Below, piece after piece: positions 1-33,678 of a DNA stretch of 33,678 nucleotides. Below the pieces are notes generated by a model, which worked only from the letters and a program-made list of their open reading frames with translations, did not search any database and had not been told where the DNA came from. How positions within the stretch are numbered: the stretch's first letter is position 1; the number at the start of each line of letters is the position of its first letter. A program made the position numbers and the translations under genes. This DNA is from Pyrinomonadaceae bacterium (lineage in GTDB: Bacteria; Acidobacteriota; Blastocatellia; Pyrinomonadales; Pyrinomonadaceae), in NCBI GenBank assembly GCA_014379795.1, contig JACMLC010000094.1, forward strand, positions 1 through 33,678, in the 5' to 3' direction.

Positions 1-1230
1 CATGATCATGATCATGTCCTGCGGGTAACCCGGCACCTTCTTCCTATCCTGATCTTTCCTGTCCTGACCGACGAGATTCGAGACGTTCTTCTCCTTCGCG
101 TCCATTCCCATTCCGCGCCCCATCTTCGGTCCCAGGTCTTCCGAAAGGGCGTTGCCCTGCCGCACTACGCCCATGCCCTCTTCCATCCCGCCGCCGGTCT
201 CAGTGCCTTTGCTGACGCTACCTATCGGGCCGACCATCGAGACCATCTGGTTCATCATGTGGTGCGGCAGGTGGCAGTGCAGCATCCACTCGCCCGGATA
301 GATAGCGTCGAACTCTATATCGCGCGCCTGCGCCACGCCGACGAGCACCGTGTTGCCGGGAAACCATGCCGTCTCAGGGATGCGGCCACCCTCCGTGCCC
401 GTAACATAGAACTGGTTGCCGTGAATGTGCATGGGGTGATGATCCATGCCGAGATTGACCATGCGTATGCGCACGCGCTCTCCGAGTTTGACGATCAGAG
501 GCGTGGTCGCGGGTCCGGCCTTGCCGTTGATGGTCAGCCAGTTGAACTCCATCGCCAGCGTGTTCGGGACCGGATTATTCGGGAGCAGCGCCCACTCTTG
601 CAGGATTAGCCCGAAATCCTTATCCACGCGCGGCGAGTACGGCTCTTTCGGGTGGATGATGAAGAGGCCGATCATACCCATCATCTCCTGCATCGCCCCG
701 TGCGAGTGGTAGAAGAAGGTGCCGTTCTGGCGCAGCACGAACTCATAAGTGAACGTCCCGCCGGGTAAGACCATCGGCTGGCTGATAAAGGGGACGCCGT
801 CCATCTCAAGCGGAACTTCAAGCCCGTGCCAGTGAACGGTCGTCCCCTCCGGCAGCTTATTGTGAAAGACTATGCGCACATGGTCGCCTTCGTTGACTTC
901 GATGGTCGGGCCGGGCACGCTGCCGTTGTAGCCCCACCCGTACATTTCCCTGATGGGAAGGAGCTGTGTTTTCACGACCTCCGCCGTCAGGTGAAAGACC
1001 TTCACGTTGCCGTCCATCGTCCACGGGAGGTGCGGGATGTCCGGCGTTTGCACGGGAACAATCCCGGCGGAATTAGGCTGCCTGTTGTCGGCTTTAGGCG
1101 GAGCTTGCTGCTGTTGCTGCGGCATCACATGCCCCTCGTGCTGCGCTTGAACGGCCTTCGAGCTTGCCAGCACAGTGCCGGCGGCGACGAGCGATGAGCG
1201 CCTGAGAAAATTTCGTCTGCTGTTATTCAT
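1..1230 (-). CDS. Multicopper oxidase (CopA/CueO-type), Tat-exported; the C-terminus lies beyond the window start
   Basis: My own minus-strand translation from ATG at 1230-1228; the frame stays open to position 1, which probably explains its absence from the ORF track. Starts MNNSRRNFLRRSSLVAAG (twin-arginine signal). Copper-ligand motifs HWHG, HSHG, HPMHIHG and HCHLPHHM, plus a Met-rich tail (GGMEEGMG, GRGMGMD, QDMIMIM). Confidence 0.9.
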   Translation of the reverse strand, partial: MNNSRRNFLRRSSLVAAGTVLASSKAVQAQHEGHVMPQQQQQAPPKADNRQPNSAGIVPVQTPDIPHLPWTMDGNVKVFHLTAEVVKTQLLPIREMYGWGYNGSVPGPTIEVNEGDHVRIVFHNKLPEGTTVHWHGLEVPLEMDGVPFISQPMVLPGGTFTYEFVLRQNGTFFYHSHGAMQEMMGMIGLFIIHPKEPYSPRVDKDFGLILQEWALLPNNPVPNTLAMEFNWLTINGKAGPATTPLIVKLGERVRIRMVNLGMDHHPMHIHGNQFYVTGTEGGRIPETAWFPGNTVLVGVAQARDIEFDAIYPGEWMLHCHLPHHMMNQMVSMVGPIGSVSKGTETGGGMEEGMGVVRQGNALSEDLGPKMGRGMGMDAKEKNVSNLVGQDRKDQDRKKVPGYPQDMIMIM

Positions 1231-24507: not shown

Positions 24508-24636
24508 CTATCTCCACAGGATGTTAATCACGCTCATGTAGAGCGGAAGTCCAACGATGATGTTGAAGGGGAAAGTCAGCGCTAGAGCCATCGTCACATA
24601 CAGGCCAGGGTTCGCTTCGGGAATCGCCAGCCGCAT
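24508..24636 (-). pseudogene. 3-prime fragment (last ~42 codons) of a membrane permease gene, probably SbtA/DUF897-type, truncated at the IS remnant
   Basis: My own translation: ...[39 protein letters not shown], then a stop. Hydrophobic C-terminal TM. The coding frame is lost where IS256-transposase similarity starts on the opposite strand. The family is assigned only from its pairing with the P-II gene. Confidence 0.45.
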
Positions 24637-24925
24637 CACCCCGTTCTTCGCGTATCCTGAGGAGATTCGGAGAGTGATCTACACGACCAATGCGATTGAA
24701 TCAGTGAATATGTCTTTACGGAAGAGCATTAAGAATCTCGGGTCGTTCCCGACCGATGAGGCGACGATAAAGTTGCTCTACCTGGCGTTACAGAATGTCA
24801 GCCGGAAGTCGACGATGCCGATCAAAGAATGGAAGGCGGCGCTGAATCGCTTTGCGATTCTGTTCGAGGACCGGATGCCTGTCCTCTAGTGATGATCATT
24901 TACACAAACCTCTTGACACGCCCTC
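24637..24925 (+). mobile_element. IS256-family insertion sequence remnant (C-terminal ~85 codons of the transposase plus the right terminal repeat)
   Basis: The translation [80 protein letters not shown] matches the conserved IS256 transposase C-terminus (YTTNAIES motif). The N-terminal ~300 codons are absent. The downstream end ATTTACACAAACCTCTTGACACGCCC (about 24898-24923) resembles the IS256 right inverted repeat (TTTTACACAA...). Boundaries are approximate. Confidence 0.8.
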
Positions 24926-25109
24926 ACGCTCTGACCTTTTCATTTAAGATGCGTTCGCACTACCCACTACCGAAAATATGTTGCCGCGCTGCCGCAGAGT
25001 TTGTTATCCTCCCCGCATCGCTTCAGTCTTCACGGTGCGTCTCTACGCGACTCTTCAGATTCGCGCCGACTCAGCATTTCTATTTCCTTCACTCTGTGAG
25101 GTATCCTCA

Positions 25110-28058
25110 ATGAGCTATCTGGACACTCCGCGCCTCGTCTTCTCCGGGCGATTTCAGGCTGACCCCTCGACCATCAACAACGACCCGCATCACTTCGACA
25201 CGGGAACCTTTCGCTCTAATGACGAACTGTGGGGGCTAGGCGTGGCAAACGGGTGGTGGAACCCGAACGGGTCGGGCGCGTGGCGCTTCCGCGACTGCGT
25301 CGTGCGTCAAGTCGTCTACGGCGACGGCACCGTGTGCGACGACCCGAACATAGACCCGGTCATCGGCGCGCTCGTCAACGACTCGAACATCCGCGTCGAA
25401 GGCAAGCTTGTTGACCTCGACTCGGAGCAGCAGATGGTCTCTCAGATTTGGGGCTTCCAAGTGGCGCTCAGCCCGTCGCCCACCAACCCCAGTCAGCCGG
25501 TCTTCGGCTTCCGCAGCGACTTCCAAATGGCTCCCTTCGCAGACATCTGGGTGCGCGTCCCGTCGGGGCAGCCCGACTCGTTCTTCGGCGCTTTCTACCA
25601 GAGCATCCTGACGAACATCGAGTGGGTCGGAGCGGGTAACGACACCTGGACGCAAAACTCGCGCTACCTCCGCGAGCTGGCGGGCGCTGGCGGGCCTCCG
25701 CCGCAGCTCAGCATCCGCTTCAACGTGGACGCCTACAACATGGCTGACCCGACTGCGCCGGAGTTCACGTTCGGGCGCGTCGTCGGCGCCATCGGGCCGT
25801 ACGACTCGGGCGAGCCGGTTCACTTTGTCGCTGGCCGGTCGCTCCAGCCCCCCATACCCCCGCCTAACCCGTCGCTCAACACCGCCTACGCGCAGGTCGA
25901 AGGCGACGTACTCACGCTCGACATGGGCAACAGCCTCCCCGACCAGGCTTTGGGCGGCCCGACCATTAACCTCGGGACGCTCTACGCCGCCATACTGCCG
26001 CCCCCGCCCGCCCAACCGGTGATACTTGGCTCCATCCCTTACACAGACAACGACTGGTATGCGAAGACGGCTGGCATCATCTCCTACACGCTCGACCCCA
26101 AGCAGGCGGAGCTGGCCGCCAGCGCTCAGCTCGGCGTCGTTCAGTCTGGCCCCAACGGTATTGCGCCGATGCTCTCCGAGGCCCCGAACGGCCTGTGGCT
26201 GCGCGCCGACCAGTTCGTCTTCAGGCTCAACCCCGGCGAGAAGGGCCAGCAAGACGAAAGCAACGTGACGACCTTTTACGCCACCACCTTCGGCCAGCCC
26301 ACCGCAGGCCAACAGATCAGCCTCGCCTACGACTCGACCATCATGCAGGGGTTCGTCCAGCAAGACCCCACGCTGGTGCCCGGCCCGCTCCCGGGACAGC
26401 CCGAAACCGTACTCAGCCTGTCTGTCCCGCCGCCGTCCTGCGAGGACTCAACCGGCGAGACGACGCTCCCCCTGCCGGCCACGATCACAACCGGAAGTGA
26501 CGGTAAGGTCACCGTGGCGCTCAAGGCGACAGACCCCGGCAACCCGCGCGGCTACATCGACGGGCAGATTTACGGTGTCACCTACGGCCCCGGCCCGGAG
26601 CCGCCGCCCGTCGGCGCTATAGGGAACTCGAGCCAGATTCTCAACGCGCTTGTCTTCTCCGGCTACGACGCGCCGGACGAGCCTGACTGGATGATAGACG
26701 TGCAGCCCATCTTCGAGCAGTACGCCAACCTCTACCCGGTGATGCGCCCCATCGTCGATCTGGCCGACTACGCCAGCGTCGTCAGCCGGACAGCGGCGCT
26801 CTTCAACGTCTTCAGCAGGTCGCTCGACGATCCCAATTACATGCCCGTCACGCGCGATCTCTCGAAGCCGAAGCGGGATATGATCCTGAACTGGCTCAAA
26901 GGGTCGCCGCCGCTCTACATGAAGCTCGACTCGAAAGAAGATTTGATGGTCGCGCTGCAACAGGCCATTGAGCTGGAGCACTCGACCATTCCGCCTTACC
27001 TCACCGCGCTCTACAGCATCAAGCCCGGAGCCAACGAGGAAGTGGCGGAACTCATCCGCAGCGTCGTCATCGAGGAGATGCTGCACATGGCGCTCGTCTG
27101 CAACATCGTCGTCTCCCTCGGCGGAAGCCCGCAGATAGGCAAACCCGGCTTCGTGCCGAACTACCCCGGCCCGCTGCCCGGCGGCCTGCTCGGCGGTCTG
27201 ACCGTGCGCCTGCGCCGTTGCTCCATCGAGCAGATACGCGACGTGTTCATGTTCATCGAGAAGCCTGAAGTGACCATGGACCCGGCAGAGCGCGCCGCTC
27301 GCCGCGCCGGCTCGAAAAAGTCTCAGGAGTCCGTCATCGAGAGAATCCACAACGAGGTTAAAGAAGCGCTGACCGGCTCGGACGACGCGCGCCGGAAGCA
27401 GCTCGCCGAGCCGCTGGACATGCGCGGCTACCCCGGCGGGCCGAGAACGGCCAACCCGTACACCATCGGCTGGTTCTATGACCAGATTAAAGAGTCCCTG
27501 ACGAACTTGAGTGGCGCAAGCCAGATCTCCTTCGGCCACGCAGACCAACAGGTCTCGGACTGGACTGGGACAGGAAAGCTCTACGTCATCAACAGCCTTG
27601 AGGACGCAATCCGTGCCATTGACGAGATCAAGTCGCAGGGCGAAGGCGCTTCGCCGCGCGATCCTGACGATGGGGACAGCGAGCTGGCGCACTATTACAA
27701 GTTCTCCGAGATTGTTCACGGTCGCCGCATCATCGTCGGAAAGGACGGGTACTCCTACACCGGCGGGCACATCCCTTTCGACCCCAACGGCGTCTACGCG
27801 ATGACGGACGACCCGGAGGCGGCGCTGTTCCCGGACGGCTCGCGCGCGCTCATCCTCTCCAAGCAGTTCGCGGAAACCTATCAGGCGCTTCTGAACGGCC
27901 TGCACCGCACCTTCAACGGCGAGCCGGACTACCTCGGGCAGGCCGTCGGCATCATGTTCTCGCTCAGCGTCATCGCGCGCAACCTGATGCAGACGCCTTC
28001 CGGGCTGGGCGACGGCACGACCGCCGGCCCGTCCTTCCAACTCCCCGACCCGCTGTGA
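25110..28058 (+). CDS. VioB/StaD/RebD-family protein (iminophenylpyruvate dimer synthase-like; C-terminal ferritin-like domain), 982 aa
   Basis: The ORF track starts at 24978, but the ATG at 25110 follows GAGG (8-nt gap). From memory it is collinear with C. violaceum VioB: MSYLDTPRLVFSGRF..NNDP vs MSILDFPRIHFRG..NRDP; YMPVTRDLSKPK vs YMPSTRELSAPK; AIELEHSTIPPYLTALYSI vs VDLELSVMLQYLYAAYSI; VIEEMLHMALVCN vs IAHEEMIHYLVVN; SQGEG vs DQGEG. Similar length (VioB is ~1000 aa). Confidence 0.85.
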   Translation: MSYLDTPRLVFSGRFQADPSTINNDPHHFDTGTFRSNDELWGLGVANGWWNPNGSGAWRFRDCVVRQVVYGDGTVCDDPNIDPVIGALVNDSNIRVEGKLVDLDSEQQMVSQIWGFQVALSPSPTNPSQPVFGFRSDFQMAPFADIWVRVPSGQPDSFFGAFYQSILTNIEWVGAGNDTWTQNSRYLRELAGAGGPPPQLSIRFNVDAYNMADPTAPEFTFGRVVGAIGPYDSGEPVHFVAGRSLQPPIPPPNPSLNTAYAQVEGDVLTLDMGNSLPDQALGGPTINLGTLYAAILPPPPAQPVILGSIPYTDNDWYAKTAGIISYTLDPKQAELAASAQLGVVQSGPNGIAPMLSEAPNGLWLRADQFVFRLNPGEKGQQDESNVTTFYATTFGQPTAGQQISLAYDSTIMQGFVQQDPTLVPGPLPGQPETVLSLSVPPPSCEDSTGETTLPLPATITTGSDGKVTVALKATDPGNPRGYIDGQIYGVTYGPGPEPPPVGAIGNSSQILNALVFSGYDAPDEPDWMIDVQPIFEQYANLYPVMRPIVDLADYASVVSRTAALFNVFSRSLDDPNYMPVTRDLSKPKRDMILNWLKGSPPLYMKLDSKEDLMVALQQAIELEHSTIPPYLTALYSIKPGANEEVAELIRSVVIEEMLHMALVCNIVVSLGGSPQIGKPGFVPNYPGPLPGGLLGGLTVRLRRCSIEQIRDVFMFIEKPEVTMDPAERAARRAGSKKSQESVIERIHNEVKEALTGSDDARRKQLAEPLDMRGYPGGPRTANPYTIGWFYDQIKESLTNLSGASQISFGHADQQVSDWTGTGKLYVINSLEDAIRAIDEIKSQGEGASPRDPDDGDSELAHYYKFSEIVHGRRIIVGKDGYSYTGGHIPFDPNGVYAMTDDPEAALFPDGSRALILSKQFAETYQALLNGLHRTFNGEPDYLGQAVGIMFSLSVIARNLMQTPSGLGDGTTAGPSFQLPDPL

Positions 28059-28156: not shown

Positions 28157-28627
28157 ATGCGCAGACTGACCTACGCGCTTGAGTTCGTCCGCAAAGCCGC
28201 AGCGCCCGAGGCAACGGCAGAGCCGATAGTCGCTTCGAGCGTCCGTATCACCACAACCATGAACCCTAAAGGCGTGCAGGGAGACATCGAACAGCTTGGC
28301 GATTTCGAGACGGCGACACTGGAAGTCAAATTGATCCCGACCACGCTACCCGGAACTTTTACGGAGACGGGGAAGCTCACCTTCGGCGGGCCGGGCAGTA
28401 ATAACAATCTTTACTTTAGCTCCATCGGCCTCGGCTACGTGGCCCCTTACAAATGCCCCGAGGAGCCTTACACGGCGGGCGTCGTGTCGTGGGTGATAGT
28501 CTGGGGGGAGGGCTTCTTTGAAGGGGCGTCCGGCATCATCACTTCCAACTTCCTCGTAGACAAAACTAAGCCCAACGACACCGGAGAATTGATTGCTTAC
28601 CACTTCGGCGTGATTTACCTGCCATAG
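28157..28627 (+). CDS. Small cytoplasmic protein, possibly an allene-oxide-cyclase/dirigent-like beta-barrel
   Basis: 156-aa ORF. Strong SD AGGAGAG 7 nt upstream of the ATG. No signal peptide. Beta-rich, with the motif VWGEGFFEGASGIITSNFLVD, which resembles the G-x-G-x-F-x-G-A-x-G pattern of AOC/dirigent-like barrels. The fold assignment is tentative. Confidence 0.6.
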   Translation: MRRLTYALEFVRKAAAPEATAEPIVASSVRITTTMNPKGVQGDIEQLGDFETATLEVKLIPTTLPGTFTETGKLTFGGPGSNNNLYFSSIGLGYVAPYKCPEEPYTAGVVSWVIVWGEGFFEGASGIITSNFLVDKTKPNDTGELIAYHFGVIYLP

Positions 28628-28832: not shown

Positions 28833-29249
28833 CTATTGTGGTAACGACGCGGCGAGTTTCATCATGGCTTGCTCTTCGGCCTCGGTGATTTCGCCTTCCC
28901 TGCTCCAAGCTATTCCGACGACGGCGCGCACCGCGCCCGCATCATCAAGCACAGGCAATGCGACTGCTGCCTGTGCGTCAACGGCCTTTGCGCCCGGCTT
29001 GATGTTGCCCGTGTCATCTGTTTGCAGGTTGCAGGTCTGCACCGGCGACTTTTGCACCTGAGCCATCCCAGCCATCCCTTTGCCGTGAGGCACGCGCGCC
29101 ACGATGGCGACCACTGCGGGCGGGATGTTATGCGCCGCCGTCAGGAAGAGGTCTTCGCCGCGCTGCACATGCACCGTGCCTGCGCTCGCGTCGTGCTGTG
29201 CGATGAACAACTCCAGCCACTTCTGCTGTGCCTGATTCTGCTCGTACAT
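28833..29249 (-). CDS. Single-domain GAF-like protein
   Basis: 138-aa ORF. Pattern AGTVHV...L.L.AAHNIPP....V..VPHGKGMAGMA......V...NLQTD......P.A......A..LPV.......GVVGIAW, typical of small stand-alone GAF proteins. Its ATG lies 2 nt after the stop of the upstream gene. Confidence 0.6.
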   Translation of the reverse strand: MYEQNQAQQKWLELFIAQHDASAGTVHVQRGEDLFLTAAHNIPPAVVAIVARVPHGKGMAGMAQVQKSPVQTCNLQTDDTGNIKPGAKAVDAQAAVALPVLDDAGAVRAVVGIAWSREGEITEAEEQAMMKLAASLPQ

Positions 29250-29251
29250 TT

Positions 29252-30157
29252 CTATTTCTCCATGAGCGGGATGGACAGATAACCGGAGATGTAGCAGCAG
29301 AGGGCGTCGCCGTCAAAGCCGCCCATCCAGAAGCTGAGCGGCCAGGTCGTTTTTTCGTCCGCGCCGATTTTGTTCTCGTGGACTGTGCCGTTGATGTCCA
29401 CGCTCCAGCCGTAGCCTAGCAGCGTCAACTGGTGCGCGCGGCGATCAATAGGTTCGCCCTGCGACAATTCCCACCAGCGGTGGAGGATGTTTAGCTGGCT
29501 GATGCGCGTTTCGAGCGCGGCGCGCTCAACCGGGTTTCGTGTGCGCTTGAGCAGTTCTTCCAGATTCCTTTGCCGTATGCGCCGGTTGTTGATGCAGGAA
29601 TCGTTAGAGGCATCGGGCAAGCCCGTCGCTTTGGCGACTTCGACGGAGTTGTCAGTTAAGCCCTGCGGTTGCCGACGCTCAAGCATTTCGGAGGTAGCCT
29701 GCATGATGGGCAGGTCGGGGTTGCTCGGATCAAGAAAGTCTTCGCGGTCGAGCACGAGCGTGCCGCGCTTTTTTCGCACCTGAACGCGCAAAGGGTCTAT
29801 GGCGTAAAGGTCGTTGCGGATGAGGATGCCGTTGCGCTCGGTGAGTTGGGCTTTGACGAAGGAGACGCGCGCGTCCAGGTATTCCGGCGCTTCACTGTAA
29901 CGGAGCGTCTCGTCGTCGTACCACTTCGCCTGCCGAACCGTCACGCCGACGCGTGGGCCAATGTCGTTTTTCCCGTAGCCGAAACGGCGCTCACAGACGC
30001 CCTCTTCGTCGGGTTGCAGGTGGAGAAGGTTGTCAAAGTCCGGCTCTCCGGCCAGCGCGAAGGTGTAGCCGCTGAGGCCGCGCGGCTCGTCCGTTGGATC
30101 TGGATCGGTAGCCATCCGCATCTGAAAGTAACCTTCGAACGAAAGATAAAGCCACAT
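29252..30157 (-). CDS. Hypothetical protein resembling the N-terminal module of VioB-family proteins
   Basis: 301-aa ORF. Its start lies 5 nt after the ferritin-like gene stop. Three collinear motif anchors to the N-terminus of the 982-aa protein: LYLSFEGYFQ...TDPDP vs RLVFSGRFQ...NNDP; VTVRQAKWYDDET vs CVVRQVVYGDGT; WSVDINGT...CCYISGYLSIP vs IRFNVDAY...FGRVVGAIGP. Confidence 0.7.
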   Translation of the reverse strand: MWLYLSFEGYFQMRMATDPDPTDEPRGLSGYTFALAGEPDFDNLLHLQPDEEGVCERRFGYGKNDIGPRVGVTVRQAKWYDDETLRYSEAPEYLDARVSFVKAQLTERNGILIRNDLYAIDPLRVQVRKKRGTLVLDREDFLDPSNPDLPIMQATSEMLERRQPQGLTDNSVEVAKATGLPDASNDSCINNRRIRQRNLEELLKRTRNPVERAALETRISQLNILHRWWELSQGEPIDRRAHQLTLLGYGWSVDINGTVHENKIGADEKTTWPLSFWMGGFDGDALCCYISGYLSIPLMEK

Positions 30158-30162
30158 GATTT

Positions 30163-31557
30163 TTATTCACCCCTTCCGACGTTTTTCCAGTTCGCGCGCC
30201 AGTCGTCAGACAGCCGCCGCATGTTCTCTGCCATATAGTGCAGCCGCTTGACGATCTTATCGTCCGCAGGTCGTAGCTCGTAAATCCAGAGATTGTCGAA
30301 CTGCCATGTGAGAATGTCGAAGTATTTCTGAAACTCGCTCCAAGTGTCTTCCGGCTGCGGCAGAAGCAGCAAGTCTTTCGAGAGTTCGAACCCCGGCCCG
30401 GCGTTACCTTTCTTATCTTTGAAGGCCGGGAGCAAGGTGAGAATTTCGCTTAAGGGGCGGATGAACATCGTCATCAGGGGAAAGAAAATGGCGTTCATCA
30501 GCGCGACGGTTTGCGCCTTTGTCTTCTTGTTGCTGCCGTAGAGAAACAGCATCATCAGGAGCATCAATTCGTAAGCGTGATTGAACAGGATTGCTATCTC
30601 GCGCGTTTCGGGGCGCGTGATGAGGTTCACTTCGTCGGGCGCGGTGATGTCTGGGTGCATGCTCGTCAGAGGGTTACGCACGACGGGGCGTGCGGCATCG
30701 AAGCCGCCCATTTGACTGAGCATCGTTGTGAAGATGCAATAGTGCGTGTGCTCTAAGTATTCGGGCGGCGCGAGGACGCCCTCACCCTGCTCGACAATTT
30801 CGACAATCGCTTCAATCGCGCTGTGCAGGTCACAGACCTGTATGAGGTCTAAGCCATACTGGCTGAGGTCATCCATCGAGCCTTCGCCATATGGCGTTCC
30901 CGGCCCGCCCCACATCTCCGCGTTAAAGTCGCCGATGAATAAATTCTTCTCGCCGATTCTCTCCGTTACAATGATGAAGCCCCAAGCGAGACTCATGTAG
31001 AGGTCTTGCACAGAGGTGAAGCCGATTTCGGACAGGAGCACCTGCCTGCCTCCCGTCGCGCCGGACGCCTGCGCCGCGCTGTGCGTGAAAACTTGCGGCG
31101 CAAGCAACTGCGCGCGGATGTCCTCACGGCTGGCGATGCCGCGCGTCTTGCAGAAGTCCGGGCCGGGAGCTGGATGCGGGGCTTCAAACTCCTGAAAGCG
31201 TTTGATAGTGTCTTTGCTGAAGCGCGTCAGTTCGGATTTGATGCCGAGCTTCCCGTAGACCTCTTTGCGCTGCGGGAAGTTTGGACGCTGGAAGTTAGGC
31301 GTGCCGCCGATGGCCGAGAGAAGGTTGAGCACAAGTCCCATGTGCTCCATCTCCTGCCGCGCGACGAGCGTCATCAGCCCACCCCAGCCGCGCGTCTTTT
31401 CCAGTTGCACCTCGCTGAGTCCCTCATCGGTTGAGCGCTTCATCGTGTAGGCGGCGAACAGATACTGGCACATCAAATTATGCTCAAGCTCTGCGGCCAG
31501 ATGCAGCGTGTTGATTAAATCTTCGCGAGTGGTGAGTTCTATCGTCAATGGTTTCAC
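30163..31557 (-). CDS. Stand-alone ferritin-like domain protein (VioB/RebD C-terminal-half type)
   Basis: 464-aa ORF. HLAAELEHNLMCQYLFAAYTM and VARQEMEHMGLVLNLLSAIGG match the ferritin-like helices of the 982-aa protein and of VioB. VEQGEGVLAPPEYLEHTHY...RPVVRNPL parallels VioB TDQGEGG..SPHYEHSHF...LPALRNPVL. Confidence 0.85.
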   Translation of the reverse strand: MKPLTIELTTREDLINTLHLAAELEHNLMCQYLFAAYTMKRSTDEGLSEVQLEKTRGWGGLMTLVARQEMEHMGLVLNLLSAIGGTPNFQRPNFPQRKEVYGKLGIKSELTRFSKDTIKRFQEFEAPHPAPGPDFCKTRGIASREDIRAQLLAPQVFTHSAAQASGATGGRQVLLSEIGFTSVQDLYMSLAWGFIIVTERIGEKNLFIGDFNAEMWGGPGTPYGEGSMDDLSQYGLDLIQVCDLHSAIEAIVEIVEQGEGVLAPPEYLEHTHYCIFTTMLSQMGGFDAARPVVRNPLTSMHPDITAPDEVNLITRPETREIAILFNHAYELMLLMMLFLYGSNKKTKAQTVALMNAIFFPLMTMFIRPLSEILTLLPAFKDKKGNAGPGFELSKDLLLLPQPEDTWSEFQKYFDILTWQFDNLWIYELRPADDKIVKRLHYMAENMRRLSDDWRANWKNVGRGE

Positions 31558-31576: not shown

Positions 31577-32224
31577 TTAGGAGCGCGCACGTCGTCTGGC
31601 GAGATAAGGTTCGACCGTGCGGCCAATCAGCCAGAAGCATCCGGCGACGAGAACCACGAGTCCGAACACCAGCGCGGCATTCTCGAATTTAGCCGCCGCC
31701 GCTCCCGTCAGCGCGTAGAGCAAGGCCGGAGGCAGCGAGCCAGTCACAGCAGCCAGCGCGGCTCGTCCCGGACTCATGCCGGAGGCCCCTGCCATGATTG
31801 CCACTGTCTCTGCTAATAAAGGCACTGGACGCGTGACGATAATCGCCAGCGTTCCCCAACGTTTGAGCAAACCGTCTGCGCGCTCACGCTCTTCCGGAGT
31901 TAATAGACGCTCTAACAATCTTCCTCCACGCCTGCCGAGCCAGAAGCCGAGCATGGCTGCTCCAACGCTTCCCGTAAGTGACAACAGCGTTCCACCCACG
32001 ACGCCAAAAAGCGCGCCATGCGCCACCATGATAAGGCTTGAAGGAACGGGCAACACTACGTCTGCGAGGAGCAGGCCCACGCCAAGCATTGCTGCCCACG
32101 GGCCGCCGTGATTCAACGACGGAGTCGGGTCAACCAGCAGCGGAACGCCTAGAGCCTTGACCAGAAAACAGAGGCTGAGGAAGAAGGCGAACATGCCGCA
32201 CATGATTGAGAAATATCGCTTCAT
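31577..32224 (-). CDS. DedA/TVP38-TMEM64 (VTT-domain) family membrane protein
   Basis: The ORF track starts at 32278, overlapping the receptor gene. The ATG at 32224 gives MKRYFSIMCGMFAFFLSL. VTT-type pattern: ADVVLPVPSSLIMVAHGALFG...GFWLGRRGG...RWGTLAIIVTRPVPLLAETVAIMAGASGM. Confidence 0.8.
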   Translation of the reverse strand: MKRYFSIMCGMFAFFLSLCFLVKALGVPLLVDPTPSLNHGGPWAAMLGVGLLLADVVLPVPSSLIMVAHGALFGVVGGTLLSLTGSVGAAMLGFWLGRRGGRLLERLLTPEERERADGLLKRWGTLAIIVTRPVPLLAETVAIMAGASGMSPGRAALAAVTGSLPPALLYALTGAAAAKFENAALVFGLVVLVAGCFWLIGRTVEPYLARRRARS

Positions 32225-32231
32225 CCTTCTT

Positions 32232-33678
32232 TCAACGTCGAAGCAAGTCGAAAAAATCCATCGTCGCTCCGAAGACAAAGGAGCGTCCCGGAGCGGGCGC
32301 AGTTTGAAAAGGCTCGAAGTAGAGCGTGTCTGTCAGATTATCCAAGCCAAAGGTCAGTGACACTCTGTATGTCTCCCGGCGATAGTTGTAAACGGCTCGC
32401 AGAGAATGTTTCGTGAATGGACTGAGGCTGGCAAAACTTCCATATTGAGTAGAGATGGCCGTCGCCAGCTCAAGCGGGTCAACGCGCGTCACGCGAGCTT
32501 GATGGCGAATTTCGTATTGGGCCAGCCAGACGCCCTTACGGTCACTGTAACGCGCGCCAAAGTGTGCGCCGAAAGGAGAGATGCCGGATAAAGGAGCATC
32601 GCTGGCAGAGCCGCGCAGGCGCAAGGGGGTGTCATCGCGGTTATAAAATGTCTCGATGAGCGTCAGCGCATTTTGCTCCGGCGTTAAGTCAGAGCCTTTG
32701 AGCCACCCCATCGTGCCATAGGGAGTAAGACTCCCTGCTCTGCCCAGGTGAAAGCTTATTTCGTAAGCGGCTTCAACTCCCTGAATCCGCGCGCGCGCAG
32801 TGTTGCCGCGCTGCACATAGAGCACGCCGTGAAACGGGAAGAACGGAGAGATAGGCTCAAGCCCCTGCGCCGGATTAGCAGGCACAAAGAGCGTCTCGGA
32901 AAATTCGTTGCGAATAAAATCCTTCAGATGATTACGAAAGTAGCCAACCGAACCAGACCAACGCTGACGCTCGATTTTGATGCCGAACTCAAAATTGCTG
33001 CCTCTCTCCGGCTTCAAAGTAGTGTTCGGAACCAGCAACACGCTGAAAGTCGGATCGCCAAAATTTCGCAGGATGTAACGCTCCGTCACGCCGGGTTCGC
33101 GGTAGCTACTGCCCCAACGAAAATACGGATTGAGGCTGCCCGGAAGACGCAGCACGATTCCCAGATTACCCGTGACGCTCGTTTTACTCGTGCTGATACC
33201 GCTCGCGCCGTTGATGAGTGGAATGATGCCGCTCGCGCCGCCGATGTTGACCGCGCCGGGGTTAGCTGTAAGTGAGGCAAAAGACGCATTCAGAATTGCT
33301 GTCTCCGTGCTGAGCGGAAAGCCCTGTGTAATCTTCGCTTCTGTCTGCCAGTTATCAACGCGCAAGCCGCCGGTTAGACGCAGCCATGTGCGCGGCTCAT
33401 ATTCCAGTAGATTGAACCAGCTCAGGTTTCTGTAAACAGAATCAGGAGTGGTCGCTCTGTCGCTGATAAAATTTCGCGGCGCGAGTGTGACGGGCGTAAA
33501 GTCGAAACGCGAAAACTCATCTCTTGATGAGTCGCGCAAGTAACCGATGCCCGTCGTCAGCCATGCGCTCTTAAATGGACTGAGCGTCGCCTGTGCCTCC
33601 GCGCCGTAAGTCGTCACGGAGTTTTTGCCGTCTGTAAAGTTTGCCGGAGTGAAAACGGATGGATTCCCTGTTAAGACC
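32232..33678 (-). CDS. TonB-dependent outer membrane receptor, C-terminal beta-barrel part; the N-terminus lies beyond the window end
   Basis: The frame is open to the window edge: the GTG at 33617 in the ORF track is internal, and upstream codons read ...VLTGNPSVFTPANFTDGKNS. Barrel motifs: GVEAAYEISF, LTFGLDNLTDTLYFEPF, GRSFVFGATMDF. Confidence 0.9.
   Translation of the reverse strand, partial: VLTGNPSVFTPANFTDGKNSVTTYGAEAQATLSPFKSAWLTTGIGYLRDSSRDEFSRFDFTPVTLAPRNFISDRATTPDSVYRNLSWFNLLEYEPRTWLRLTGGLRVDNWQTEAKITQGFPLSTETAILNASFASLTANPGAVNIGGASGIIPLINGASGISTSKTSVTGNLGIVLRLPGSLNPYFRWGSSYREPGVTERYILRNFGDPTFSVLLVPNTTLKPERGSNFEFGIKIERQRWSGSVGYFRNHLKDFIRNEFSETLFVPANPAQGLEPISPFFPFHGVLYVQRGNTARARIQGVEAAYEISFHLGRAGSLTPYGTMGWLKGSDLTPEQNALTLIETFYNRDDTPLRLRGSASDAPLSGISPFGAHFGARYSDRKGVWLAQYEIRHQARVTRVDPLELATAISTQYGSFASLSPFTKHSLRAVYNYRRETYRVSLTFGLDNLTDTLYFEPFQTAPAPGRSFVFGATMDFFDLLRR

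Follow-up and report, generated by a model that had tools for sequence, protein, structure and literature searches.

Do the two ends of a VioB-type enzyme have to be joined in one chain, and do they have to follow each other in the order in which VioB carries them? This question is raised by two adjacent genes in contig JACMLC010000094.1 of a Pyrinomonadaceae bacterium (assembly GCA_014379795.1), of which we analysed a stretch of 33,678 nucleotides (nt), referred to here as the window. The first gene of the pair encodes a 464-amino-acid (aa) ferritin-like protein, which we call FER, and the second a 301-aa protein. The window also holds a 982-aa paralog, in which a ferritin-like half follows an N-terminal part, the N-module. 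The original prediction, made from the sequence alone, had described the pair as a split and order-permuted VioB, with the gene for the C-terminal half first and that for the N-module second. Our findings firmly support the FER/301 pair as a genuine functional unit with a conserved gene order, and on balance we favor the interpretation that it represents a translationally linked, obligately paired two-subunit, order-swapped and shortened version of the architecture of VioB, StaD and RebD. The word "split", taken as a direction of evolution, is not something that the data show.

The ferritin-like half can be assigned with little ambiguity. FER matched the Pfam family PF12902 over model positions 1-219 of 221 with 108.7 bits (E 5e-31), exceeding the gathering threshold of 22.3 bits, and it matched the VioB equivalog TIGR04492, a model of ~1000 aa, at positions 791-937 only, with 80.4 bits, which does not reach the cutoff of 1250 bits. 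By BLASTP it aligned to residues 601-847 of the 982-aa protein (E 2e-14, 24% identity), and when a FER family profile built from 76 members taken from related loci was compared with the profile of the 982 family, FER residues 3-395 corresponded to residues 601-981 of the 982-aa protein (probability 99.9%, E 5e-32). The 982-aa protein itself has PF12902 at residues 616-869 and scored 22.5 bits with TIGR04492. The correspondence between FER and the C-terminal half of the paralog, originally proposed by eye, is therefore confirmed, and its ELEH, EMEH, QGEG and EHTHY blocks are real. As judged from these alignments, the 464-aa protein corresponds, as a free-standing chain, to the entire ferritin-like half, with a tail of about 70 residues in addition. 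Each of E69, E71, H72, E259 (of QGEG) and H272 is kept by 90% or more of the 76 members. Since the ExxH pairs are conserved (Table 1), a di-metal site can be predicted, and the metal centre is probably di-iron. FER keeps both ExxH motifs, whereas two of the VioB-like proteins, P0392 and P0394, have LELT at the first site and have lost its His. The VioB-like proteins used throughout are the database sequences P0391-P0396, P0391 being the Janthinobacterium VioB; the VioB query sequence served only as bait for retrieving them. In the Protein Data Bank (PDB), the first bundle helices of 3HL1, a PF12902 protein of 317 aa and shorter than FER, matched residues 615-683 of the 982-aa protein (E 1.1e-7); the ferritin-like domain was matched over its first helices only, and for the N-module the sequence search gave no PDB chain at all.

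That FER and the 301-aa protein belong together is seen from the loci that share them. Our locus scan was run on a single genome for each GTDB species and yielded 80 loci, and 82 were examined in all, from Acidobacteriota, Myxococcota, Actinomycetota, Planctomycetota, Gemmatimonadota, Bacteroidota, Pseudomonadota and Chloroflexota. A 464-like open reading frame (ORF) on the same strand ends at the start of the 301-like gene in 79 of the 82, and in the remaining three the upstream sequence is shorter than 1 kb. The order claimed for this window, with the C-half gene first and the 301-aa gene 5 nt behind it, was thus found as described, and FER comes first in all 79 informative loci, across at least eight phyla. 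The gene content outside the pair differs among loci, with some neighbours recurring inside lineages. In the window, read directly from the sequence, the FER gene runs from a GTG start to a TAA stop, and the 301-aa gene begins with an ATG that has an AGGGG sequence about 12 nt upstream; elsewhere the two genes abut or share a 4-nt overlap. Fusions tell the same story. Among the 150 family representatives listed, 5 combine PF12902 and a 301-like domain in one chain, always with the ferritin-like part first: P0281 (681 aa), P0386 (750 aa) and P0387 (724 aa) are apparently full-length and join the two parts by a linker, which is Pro-rich in P0386, and in P0314 and P0389 the ferritin-like domain is incomplete. 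The opposite arrangement, a 301-like domain ahead of a ferritin-like one, does not occur among these 150. The natural fusions keep the reverse of the VioB domain order.

The partner belongs to a large family that carries no annotation. The 301-aa protein had no match in Pfam, NCBIfam, PADLOC or PHROGs. An exhaustive HMMER search gave 463 representatives at 50% identity, and at 90% identity the family comprises 532 clusters, nearly all of about 300 aa and labelled "hypothetical". Among 103 diverse members, eight residues do not vary (R14, P19, G27, G30, E38, R57, P122 and R218). The AlphaFold2 model (predicted local distance difference test score, pLDDT, 95.5; predicted template modelling score 0.92) shows a beta core in which strand 1 is followed by a conserved loop of 55 residues, together with a long helical hairpin, and the C-terminal strands carry W272, W277, G279, D282, D284, G292 and P297. 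Foldseek found no match for this model in the PDB (best E 0.25, template modelling score below 0.2), and the family profile gave only noise against PDB sequences.

Is this protein related to the N-module? The N-modules themselves form a coherent group, since a profile-profile comparison of those of the 982 family with those of the VioB-like proteins gave a probability of 98% (E 2.9e-13). Aligned with hhalign to a profile of diverse N-modules, the 301 profile scored 39 (P 2.6e-4, probability 42%), pairing residues 1-106 with 1-97 in an alignment that begins at both N-termini. Against the VioB-like proteins alone, the value was similar (P 2.9e-4, probability 40%), here over 194 columns that join 67-289 to 93-298 and cover "FWmGgWD.DaL.gy..G.L.iP" versus "GlWr..elatyPaGrLl.P". 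Five template builds scored 31-39, with P up to 8e-3 and probabilities of 5-42%. Block-shuffled queries scored 16±3, with a maximum of 26 in 250 shuffles, and internal negative controls (301 versus N-module residues 256-600, which gave 13.6; 301 versus FER; FER versus N-module) stayed at 13.6-17.6. The top three local alignments were always collinear, with sub-alignments joining 65-141 of the 301-aa protein to 56-139 of the N-module and 273-297 to 223-247.

These alignments match the three sequence anchors on which the original prediction had relied, and the anchors fared unequally. The first (F.G.FQ....T..DP) and the third (the C-terminal G..G / G...P) fall on residues conserved throughout both families: F7, G9 and T17 of the 301 family coincide with F11, G13 and T21 of the N-module, the consensus G95 with the invariant G86, and G279 with the invariant G229. 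The strand that carries the second anchor is conserved, but its literal VRQ is no family-wide feature of the 301 proteins, where conservation is limited to G71, V72 and V74. An "AGEP" match to Chromobacterium violaceum VioB is likewise not conserved family-wide and, together with "VRQ", is partly due to chance. Structure predictions point in the same direction as the alignments. The secondary structures of the two AlphaFold2 models, predicted independently, were compared along a global profile alignment that was blind to secondary structure. In the core they agreed at 66% of positions, compared to 44±5% for circular shifts (maximum 58.5%), none of 250 of which reached the real value, and 53 strand-strand matches were counted versus 30±6 (z about 4 for the coincidence). 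By segment, the agreement was 66% for residues 1-141, 41% with no strand-strand matches for 142-245, and 69% for 246-301. A further hint comes from a paralog subfamily of 421-425 aa (Table 1), which is found by the 301 profile with E 1e-22 and opens its 301-like part with "PRIRFGGRFQA...T", near the N-module consensus; in sequence, it looks like an intermediate between the two families. These paralogs consist of an N-terminal Ig-like domain and a 301-like domain beginning PRIRFGGRFQARFATDGDFFNEPRG.

Several results weigh against this relationship, and most of them can be turned into an argument that the 301 family is an unrelated accessory subunit of PF12902 proteins with a novel fold, which resembles the N-module by chance or by convergence of beta-rich patterns. 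BLASTP found no similarity between the 301-aa and 982-aa proteins. Searches with hidden Markov models (HMMs) against sequences, in both directions, gave E values of about 0.1-1 in 127-270 sequences, which is not significant; the best of these alignments fell on the same anchors. The profile-profile comparison, which the original prediction had proposed as a check, put the pair above the shuffled nulls and in collinear order (P 2.6e-4 to 8e-3), but its probability never rose above 42%, under the usual homology threshold, and is suggestive only. When the shuffling was done in blocks of 10 columns, 3-4 of 120 nulls equalled the real score. The middle third of the 301-aa protein, residues 142-245, is helical where the N-module has strands (141-173, a beta-hairpin), and secondary-structure scoring in hhalign came out slightly negative locally and, because of this helical insert, strongly negative globally. 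No solved template in the PDB was common to the 301 and N-module models in Foldseek. The poorly conserved "VRQ" and "AGEP" also suit an unrelated subunit, as does the fusion of 301-like domains to unrelated domains, such as the subtilase (Peptidase_S8) of the 860-aa P0313; in the 485-aa P0243 a protein-kinase domain was weakly detected beside the 301-like one. A last point, of a different kind, is that in Acidobacteria the pair repeatedly lies beside fused or N-module-only paralogs in varying arrangements. Such company would not be expected if the 301-aa protein did no more than stand in for an N-module, and the pair may thus be more than a substitute for these paralogs; the point is taken up below.

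What speaks against an unrelated subunit is that the comparisons with the 982-type and the VioB-type N-modules each reach P of about 3e-4 and are collinear with one another, with the N-termini in register, and that real scores stand clear of every internal control. Moreover, predicted strands coincide far above the circular-shift nulls, the most conserved residues of both families fall together, and the 301 family is found only beside a domain that is otherwise fused to an N-module. We therefore regard an unrelated partner as unlikely, if still the most serious competitor, and the beta core of the 301-aa protein (residues 1-141 and 246-301) as probably homologous, going by sequence comparison, to domain 1 (residues ~1-250) of the VioB-type N-module; this estimate already allows for the several profile versions that were tried.

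If the 301-aa protein corresponds to domain 1, then what has been left out? The original prediction put the missing middle at about 250 residues; measured, it is about 350, roughly residues 250-600 of the 982-aa protein. The alignment of FER to that protein starts only at residue 601, and the 301 profile gives only noise against 256-600. A 12-column match at residues 360-371 was traced to noise from a profile with an effective number of sequences of 2.2, and disappeared with better profiles. The AlphaFold2 model of residues 1-600 (pLDDT 86.6) consists of a beta domain, beta-sandwich domains and helices, and for it Foldseek found only weak matches to Ig-like, macroglobulin and Big domains, in the beta-sandwich region. 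The FER/301 pair, lacking these residues, therefore has neither the Ig-like spacers nor the helical linker that precedes the ferritin-like half.

With these assignments, the pair can be set beside the known enzymes VioB, StaD and RebD, which are iminophenyl-pyruvate dimer synthases or chromopyrrolic acid synthases. It shares with VioB, StaD and RebD the ferritin-like half, which is homologous to FER (PF12902, QGEG, the conserved His and later blocks), and residues ~1-300 of VioB probably correspond to the 301-aa protein. However, VioB, StaD and RebD are single chains with the N-module first and with Ig-like middle domains and a helical linker, whereas FER/301 consists of two polypeptides, the ferritin-like one first, and has neither the Ig-like domains nor the linker. 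The vio, sta and reb clusters have a Trp oxidase nearby, and none was found near FER/301 in the window. The 982 family (~900-1000 aa; Acidobacteriota, Myxococcota and others) uses what are probably the same two building blocks as FER/301, with both ExxH motifs, but in a single chain with the N-module ahead of the ferritin-like half and with about 350 extra residues.

The original prediction also knew of no described two-subunit form of this enzyme family. That such forms do not exist is not supported: the FER/301 pair has hundreds of members, and a second kind of two-gene form is present in public data. At locus L085 a VioB-like protein is split collinearly into the 668-aa N-half P0393 and a 417-aa PF12902 protein, whose genes overlap by 4 nt. 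Like FER/301 it is a two-gene form, but the N-half comes first and retains the Ig-like domains and the linker. The surroundings of this split pair (L085:328-3584) include cytochrome-c-like, aminotransferase class IV and chorismate-binding enzyme genes. Proteins of 555-720 aa that consist of the N-module only are common as well. Our literature search found no description of the domain organisation of VioB, StaD and RebD, or of a split form. The ferritin-like half belongs to a known family, but, as far as that search shows, there is no description of the partner family, its obligate position behind FER, the permuted fusions or the wide distribution.

The clustering in Acidobacteria suggests another alternative, in which FER serves the neighbouring N-module-only or fused paralogs in trans and the 301-aa protein is an adaptor or regulator in a larger system. 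Acidobacterial N-module genes do gather around the pair in the window and in the other loci listed in Table 1, and the paralogs with Ig-like and 301-like domains adjoin N-module-only genes in L003, L016 and L017. Yet an N-module gene lies within 4 kb of the pair in only about 14 of the 82 loci, and none was seen in the 4-kb flanks of the loci from Actinomycetota, Myxococcota, Planctomycetota, Gemmatimonadota and Pseudomonadota. Within the FER/301 clade, moreover, fusions join FER to a 301-like domain and never to an N-module. Supply in trans is thus an improbable explanation for the pair as a whole. That the 301-aa ORF might be a chance frame or a mis-called gene, for which its absence of annotation is the sole argument, can practically be dismissed, since homologs that share its length and its invariant residues number in the hundreds, the model has a pLDDT of 95.5 and the synteny is conserved across phyla.

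For the two-subunit, order-swapped interpretation, a simple assembly can be envisioned. FER and the 301-aa subunit would associate non-covalently, in the manner of domain 1 and the ferritin-like half in the fused enzymes, and the complex would reproduce the core of a VioB-type enzyme without spacer domains. The helical insert of the 301-aa subunit could stand in for the beta-hairpin of the N-module. Such a complex might be a metal-dependent oxidative enzyme or a redox or ligand sensor. Its substrate would presumably be other than a violacein or indolocarbazole precursor, since neither a Trp oxidase nor another gene of these pathways is present: among the window's major ORFs, the Pfam scan revealed metal efflux/resistance, MerR, methyltransferase, GAF, DedA and TonB-receptor genes, with no amino-acid oxidase, P450 or flavin monooxygenase, and no bisindole-pathway gene (the Trp oxidases VioA, StaO and RebO; VioC, VioD and VioE; StaP and StaC) was found there. 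A role linked to signalling or uptake may be considered because of the GAF, TonB, DedA and STAND-type cyclase or kinase genes that recur as neighbours.

Some of these neighbours are close. The GAF gene is probably in one operon with the FER and 301 genes, and an ortholog occupies the matching position in nine related loci. The DedA/VTT gene is found upstream of the FER gene in 10 loci. A TonB receptor adjoins the pair in L087 and L003 also; that of the window scored 109 bits with TIGR01785 (TonB-hemin), which is under the cutoff. Outside the Acidobacteria, a large STAND-type protein, in which an adenylate/guanylate cyclase or Ser/Thr kinase domain is combined with AAA_16, NACHT or NB-ARC and TPR, directly flanks the pair in 24 of the 82 loci, and this may represent a conserved functional link to signalling. 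In 12 loci, including those of Kofleriaceae and other Myxococcota, the neighbour is a gene of the tetrapyrrole-methylase family (TP_methylase, PF00590), which deserves mention because the characterised relatives are haem proteins: to judge from titles in the reference list of PMC10784701, the StaD/RebD-type chromopyrrolic acid synthases bind haem b. It is tempting to go one step further and to see FER/301 as the VioB superfamily reduced to a minimal core, widespread and self-sufficient, in which a di-metal ferritin-like subunit is combined with a beta subunit resembling domain 1. This core would work in either domain order, with the ferritin-like part first in FER/301 and last in VioB, and instead of bisindole synthesis it would serve in redox or small-molecule sensing or generation, coupled to signalling proteins of the GAF, cyclase, kinase and STAND types. 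We offer this only as a tentative proposal, with the odds against it.

Table 1. Positions of the features discussed. Those without a locus label refer to the window; L, locus of the scan; P, database sequence.
Feature	Position	Strand	Remarks
464-aa FER gene	30163-31557	-	PF12902 ferritin-like; equivalent to the C-half of VioB-type proteins
First ExxH motif, E23-L-E25-H26	31480-31491	-	E23, E25 and H26 kept in at least 90% of 76 members
Second ExxH motif, E69-M-E71-H72	31342-31353	-	ARQEMEH kept in at least 90%; aligns to EEMLH of the 982-aa protein
C-terminal extension of FER, aa 396-464	30166-30372	-	no counterpart in the 982-aa paralog; alignment stops at 395/981
Intergenic spacer	30158-30162	-	5 nt (AAATC), from the TAA of the 464-aa gene to the ATG of the 301-aa gene
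301-aa partner gene	29252-30157	-	member of a large unannotated family
301-aa residues 1-141	29735-30157	-	strand 1, conserved 55-residue loop, strands 2-6; aligns with N-module residues 1-139
301-aa residues 142-245	29423-29734	-	mostly helical insert (hairpin H185-205 + H209-231); no N-module counterpart
301-aa residues 246-301	29255-29422	-	three C-terminal strands; align to N-module 200-247
138-aa GAF-domain gene	28833-29249	-	begins 2 nt past the stop of the 301-aa gene; PF13185 GAF_2, E 1.8e-8
DedA/VTT-family membrane protein gene	31577-32278	-	PF09335, E 4e-20; ends 19 nt upstream of the 464-aa gene
TonB-dependent receptor gene, C-terminal part only	32232-33678	-	PF00593, E 1.7e-29; leaves the window edge
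982-aa fused paralog gene	25110-28058	+	internal ATG of a 1026-aa ORF; convergent with the 464/301 operon
982-aa protein layout	residues ~1-250; ~259-515; 527-597; 601-982		domain 1; Ig-like; helical linker; ferritin-like half
156-aa ORF	28157-28627	+	downstream of the 982-aa gene
421-425-aa paralogs	L003:4293-5558; L016:4312-5589; L017:6839-8116	-	adjoin N-module-only genes of 558-565 aa without ferritin-like domain
Pair beside fused/N-module paralog	this window (982-aa); L087; P0125 contig
Tandem N-module-only genes after pair	L005; L013
565-aa N-module-only gene beside pair	L015; L016; L017; L023; L043
STAND-type neighbours, examples	L047:25-2763; L019:4944-8870; L058:19-2523; L076:4859-8665
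TP_methylase gene	L068:1903-2703		266 aa; immediately upstream of the FER gene

If the two-subunit interpretation is true, it fixes the domain boundaries of the family: domain 1 would span ~1-250, the Ig-like and linker portion (~250-600) would be dispensable, and the ferritin-like half would begin at ~600. It would mean, too, that the two core domains can be joined covalently in either order. The pair would also provide two small proteins suited to crystallography and cofactor analysis, and a new family of ~300 residues with hundreds of members and no Pfam or NCBIfam model. Were the minimal-core proposal to hold as well, the purpose of the N-terminal domain of VioB would be redefined, and a structurally uncharacterised enzyme family would gain a small, tractable model. 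That proteins of the GAF, cyclase, kinase and STAND types are recurrently linked to the pair suggests, for most of the superfamily, a task other than making bisindole pigments.

Locus L003 shows how the neighbourhood can be arranged. There the genes for the TonB receptor, the DedA/VTT protein and the GAF protein follow one another directly (L003:1-3839), with no FER/301 pair between DedA and GAF; the pair therefore appears to act as a cassette that can be inserted or deleted. Beside these genes lie a gene for an Ig-like plus 301-like protein and an N-module-only gene, the latter followed by a CHASE2-guanylate cyclase gene. A known defence system and a phage origin were considered for the pair and set aside: PADLOC, searched for known defence systems, had no match for the 464-, 301-, 982- and 156-aa proteins or the GAF protein, and PHROGs, searched for phage origin, had none for the 464-aa or the 301-aa protein. 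The 156-aa ORF had no match in Pfam, NCBIfam, PADLOC or PHROGs, and it is absent after the fused paralog in L087. A scan for promoters and terminators did no better than shuffled sequence.

Much of the rest of the window, positions 1282-22870, is mostly a region of metal homeostasis and resistance. It encodes a P-type ATPase with a YHS domain, a cupredoxin, two MerR regulators, an MFS transporter, an RND efflux set (an AcrB-like protein of 1041 aa, HlyD and two OEP proteins), a YtkA-like protein, a BlaR1/BlaI-like pair and a HupE/UreJ protein. A 110-aa fragment of a Mutator-family transposase (24557-24889, plus strand; PF00872, E 2e-12) is found a short way upstream of the 982-aa gene, and the region of that gene (25000-28000) has a guanine-cytosine content of 0.64, compared to ~0.58 in its flanks. 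The transposase fragment and the raised guanine-cytosine content hint that the 982-aa fused paralog was gained horizontally.

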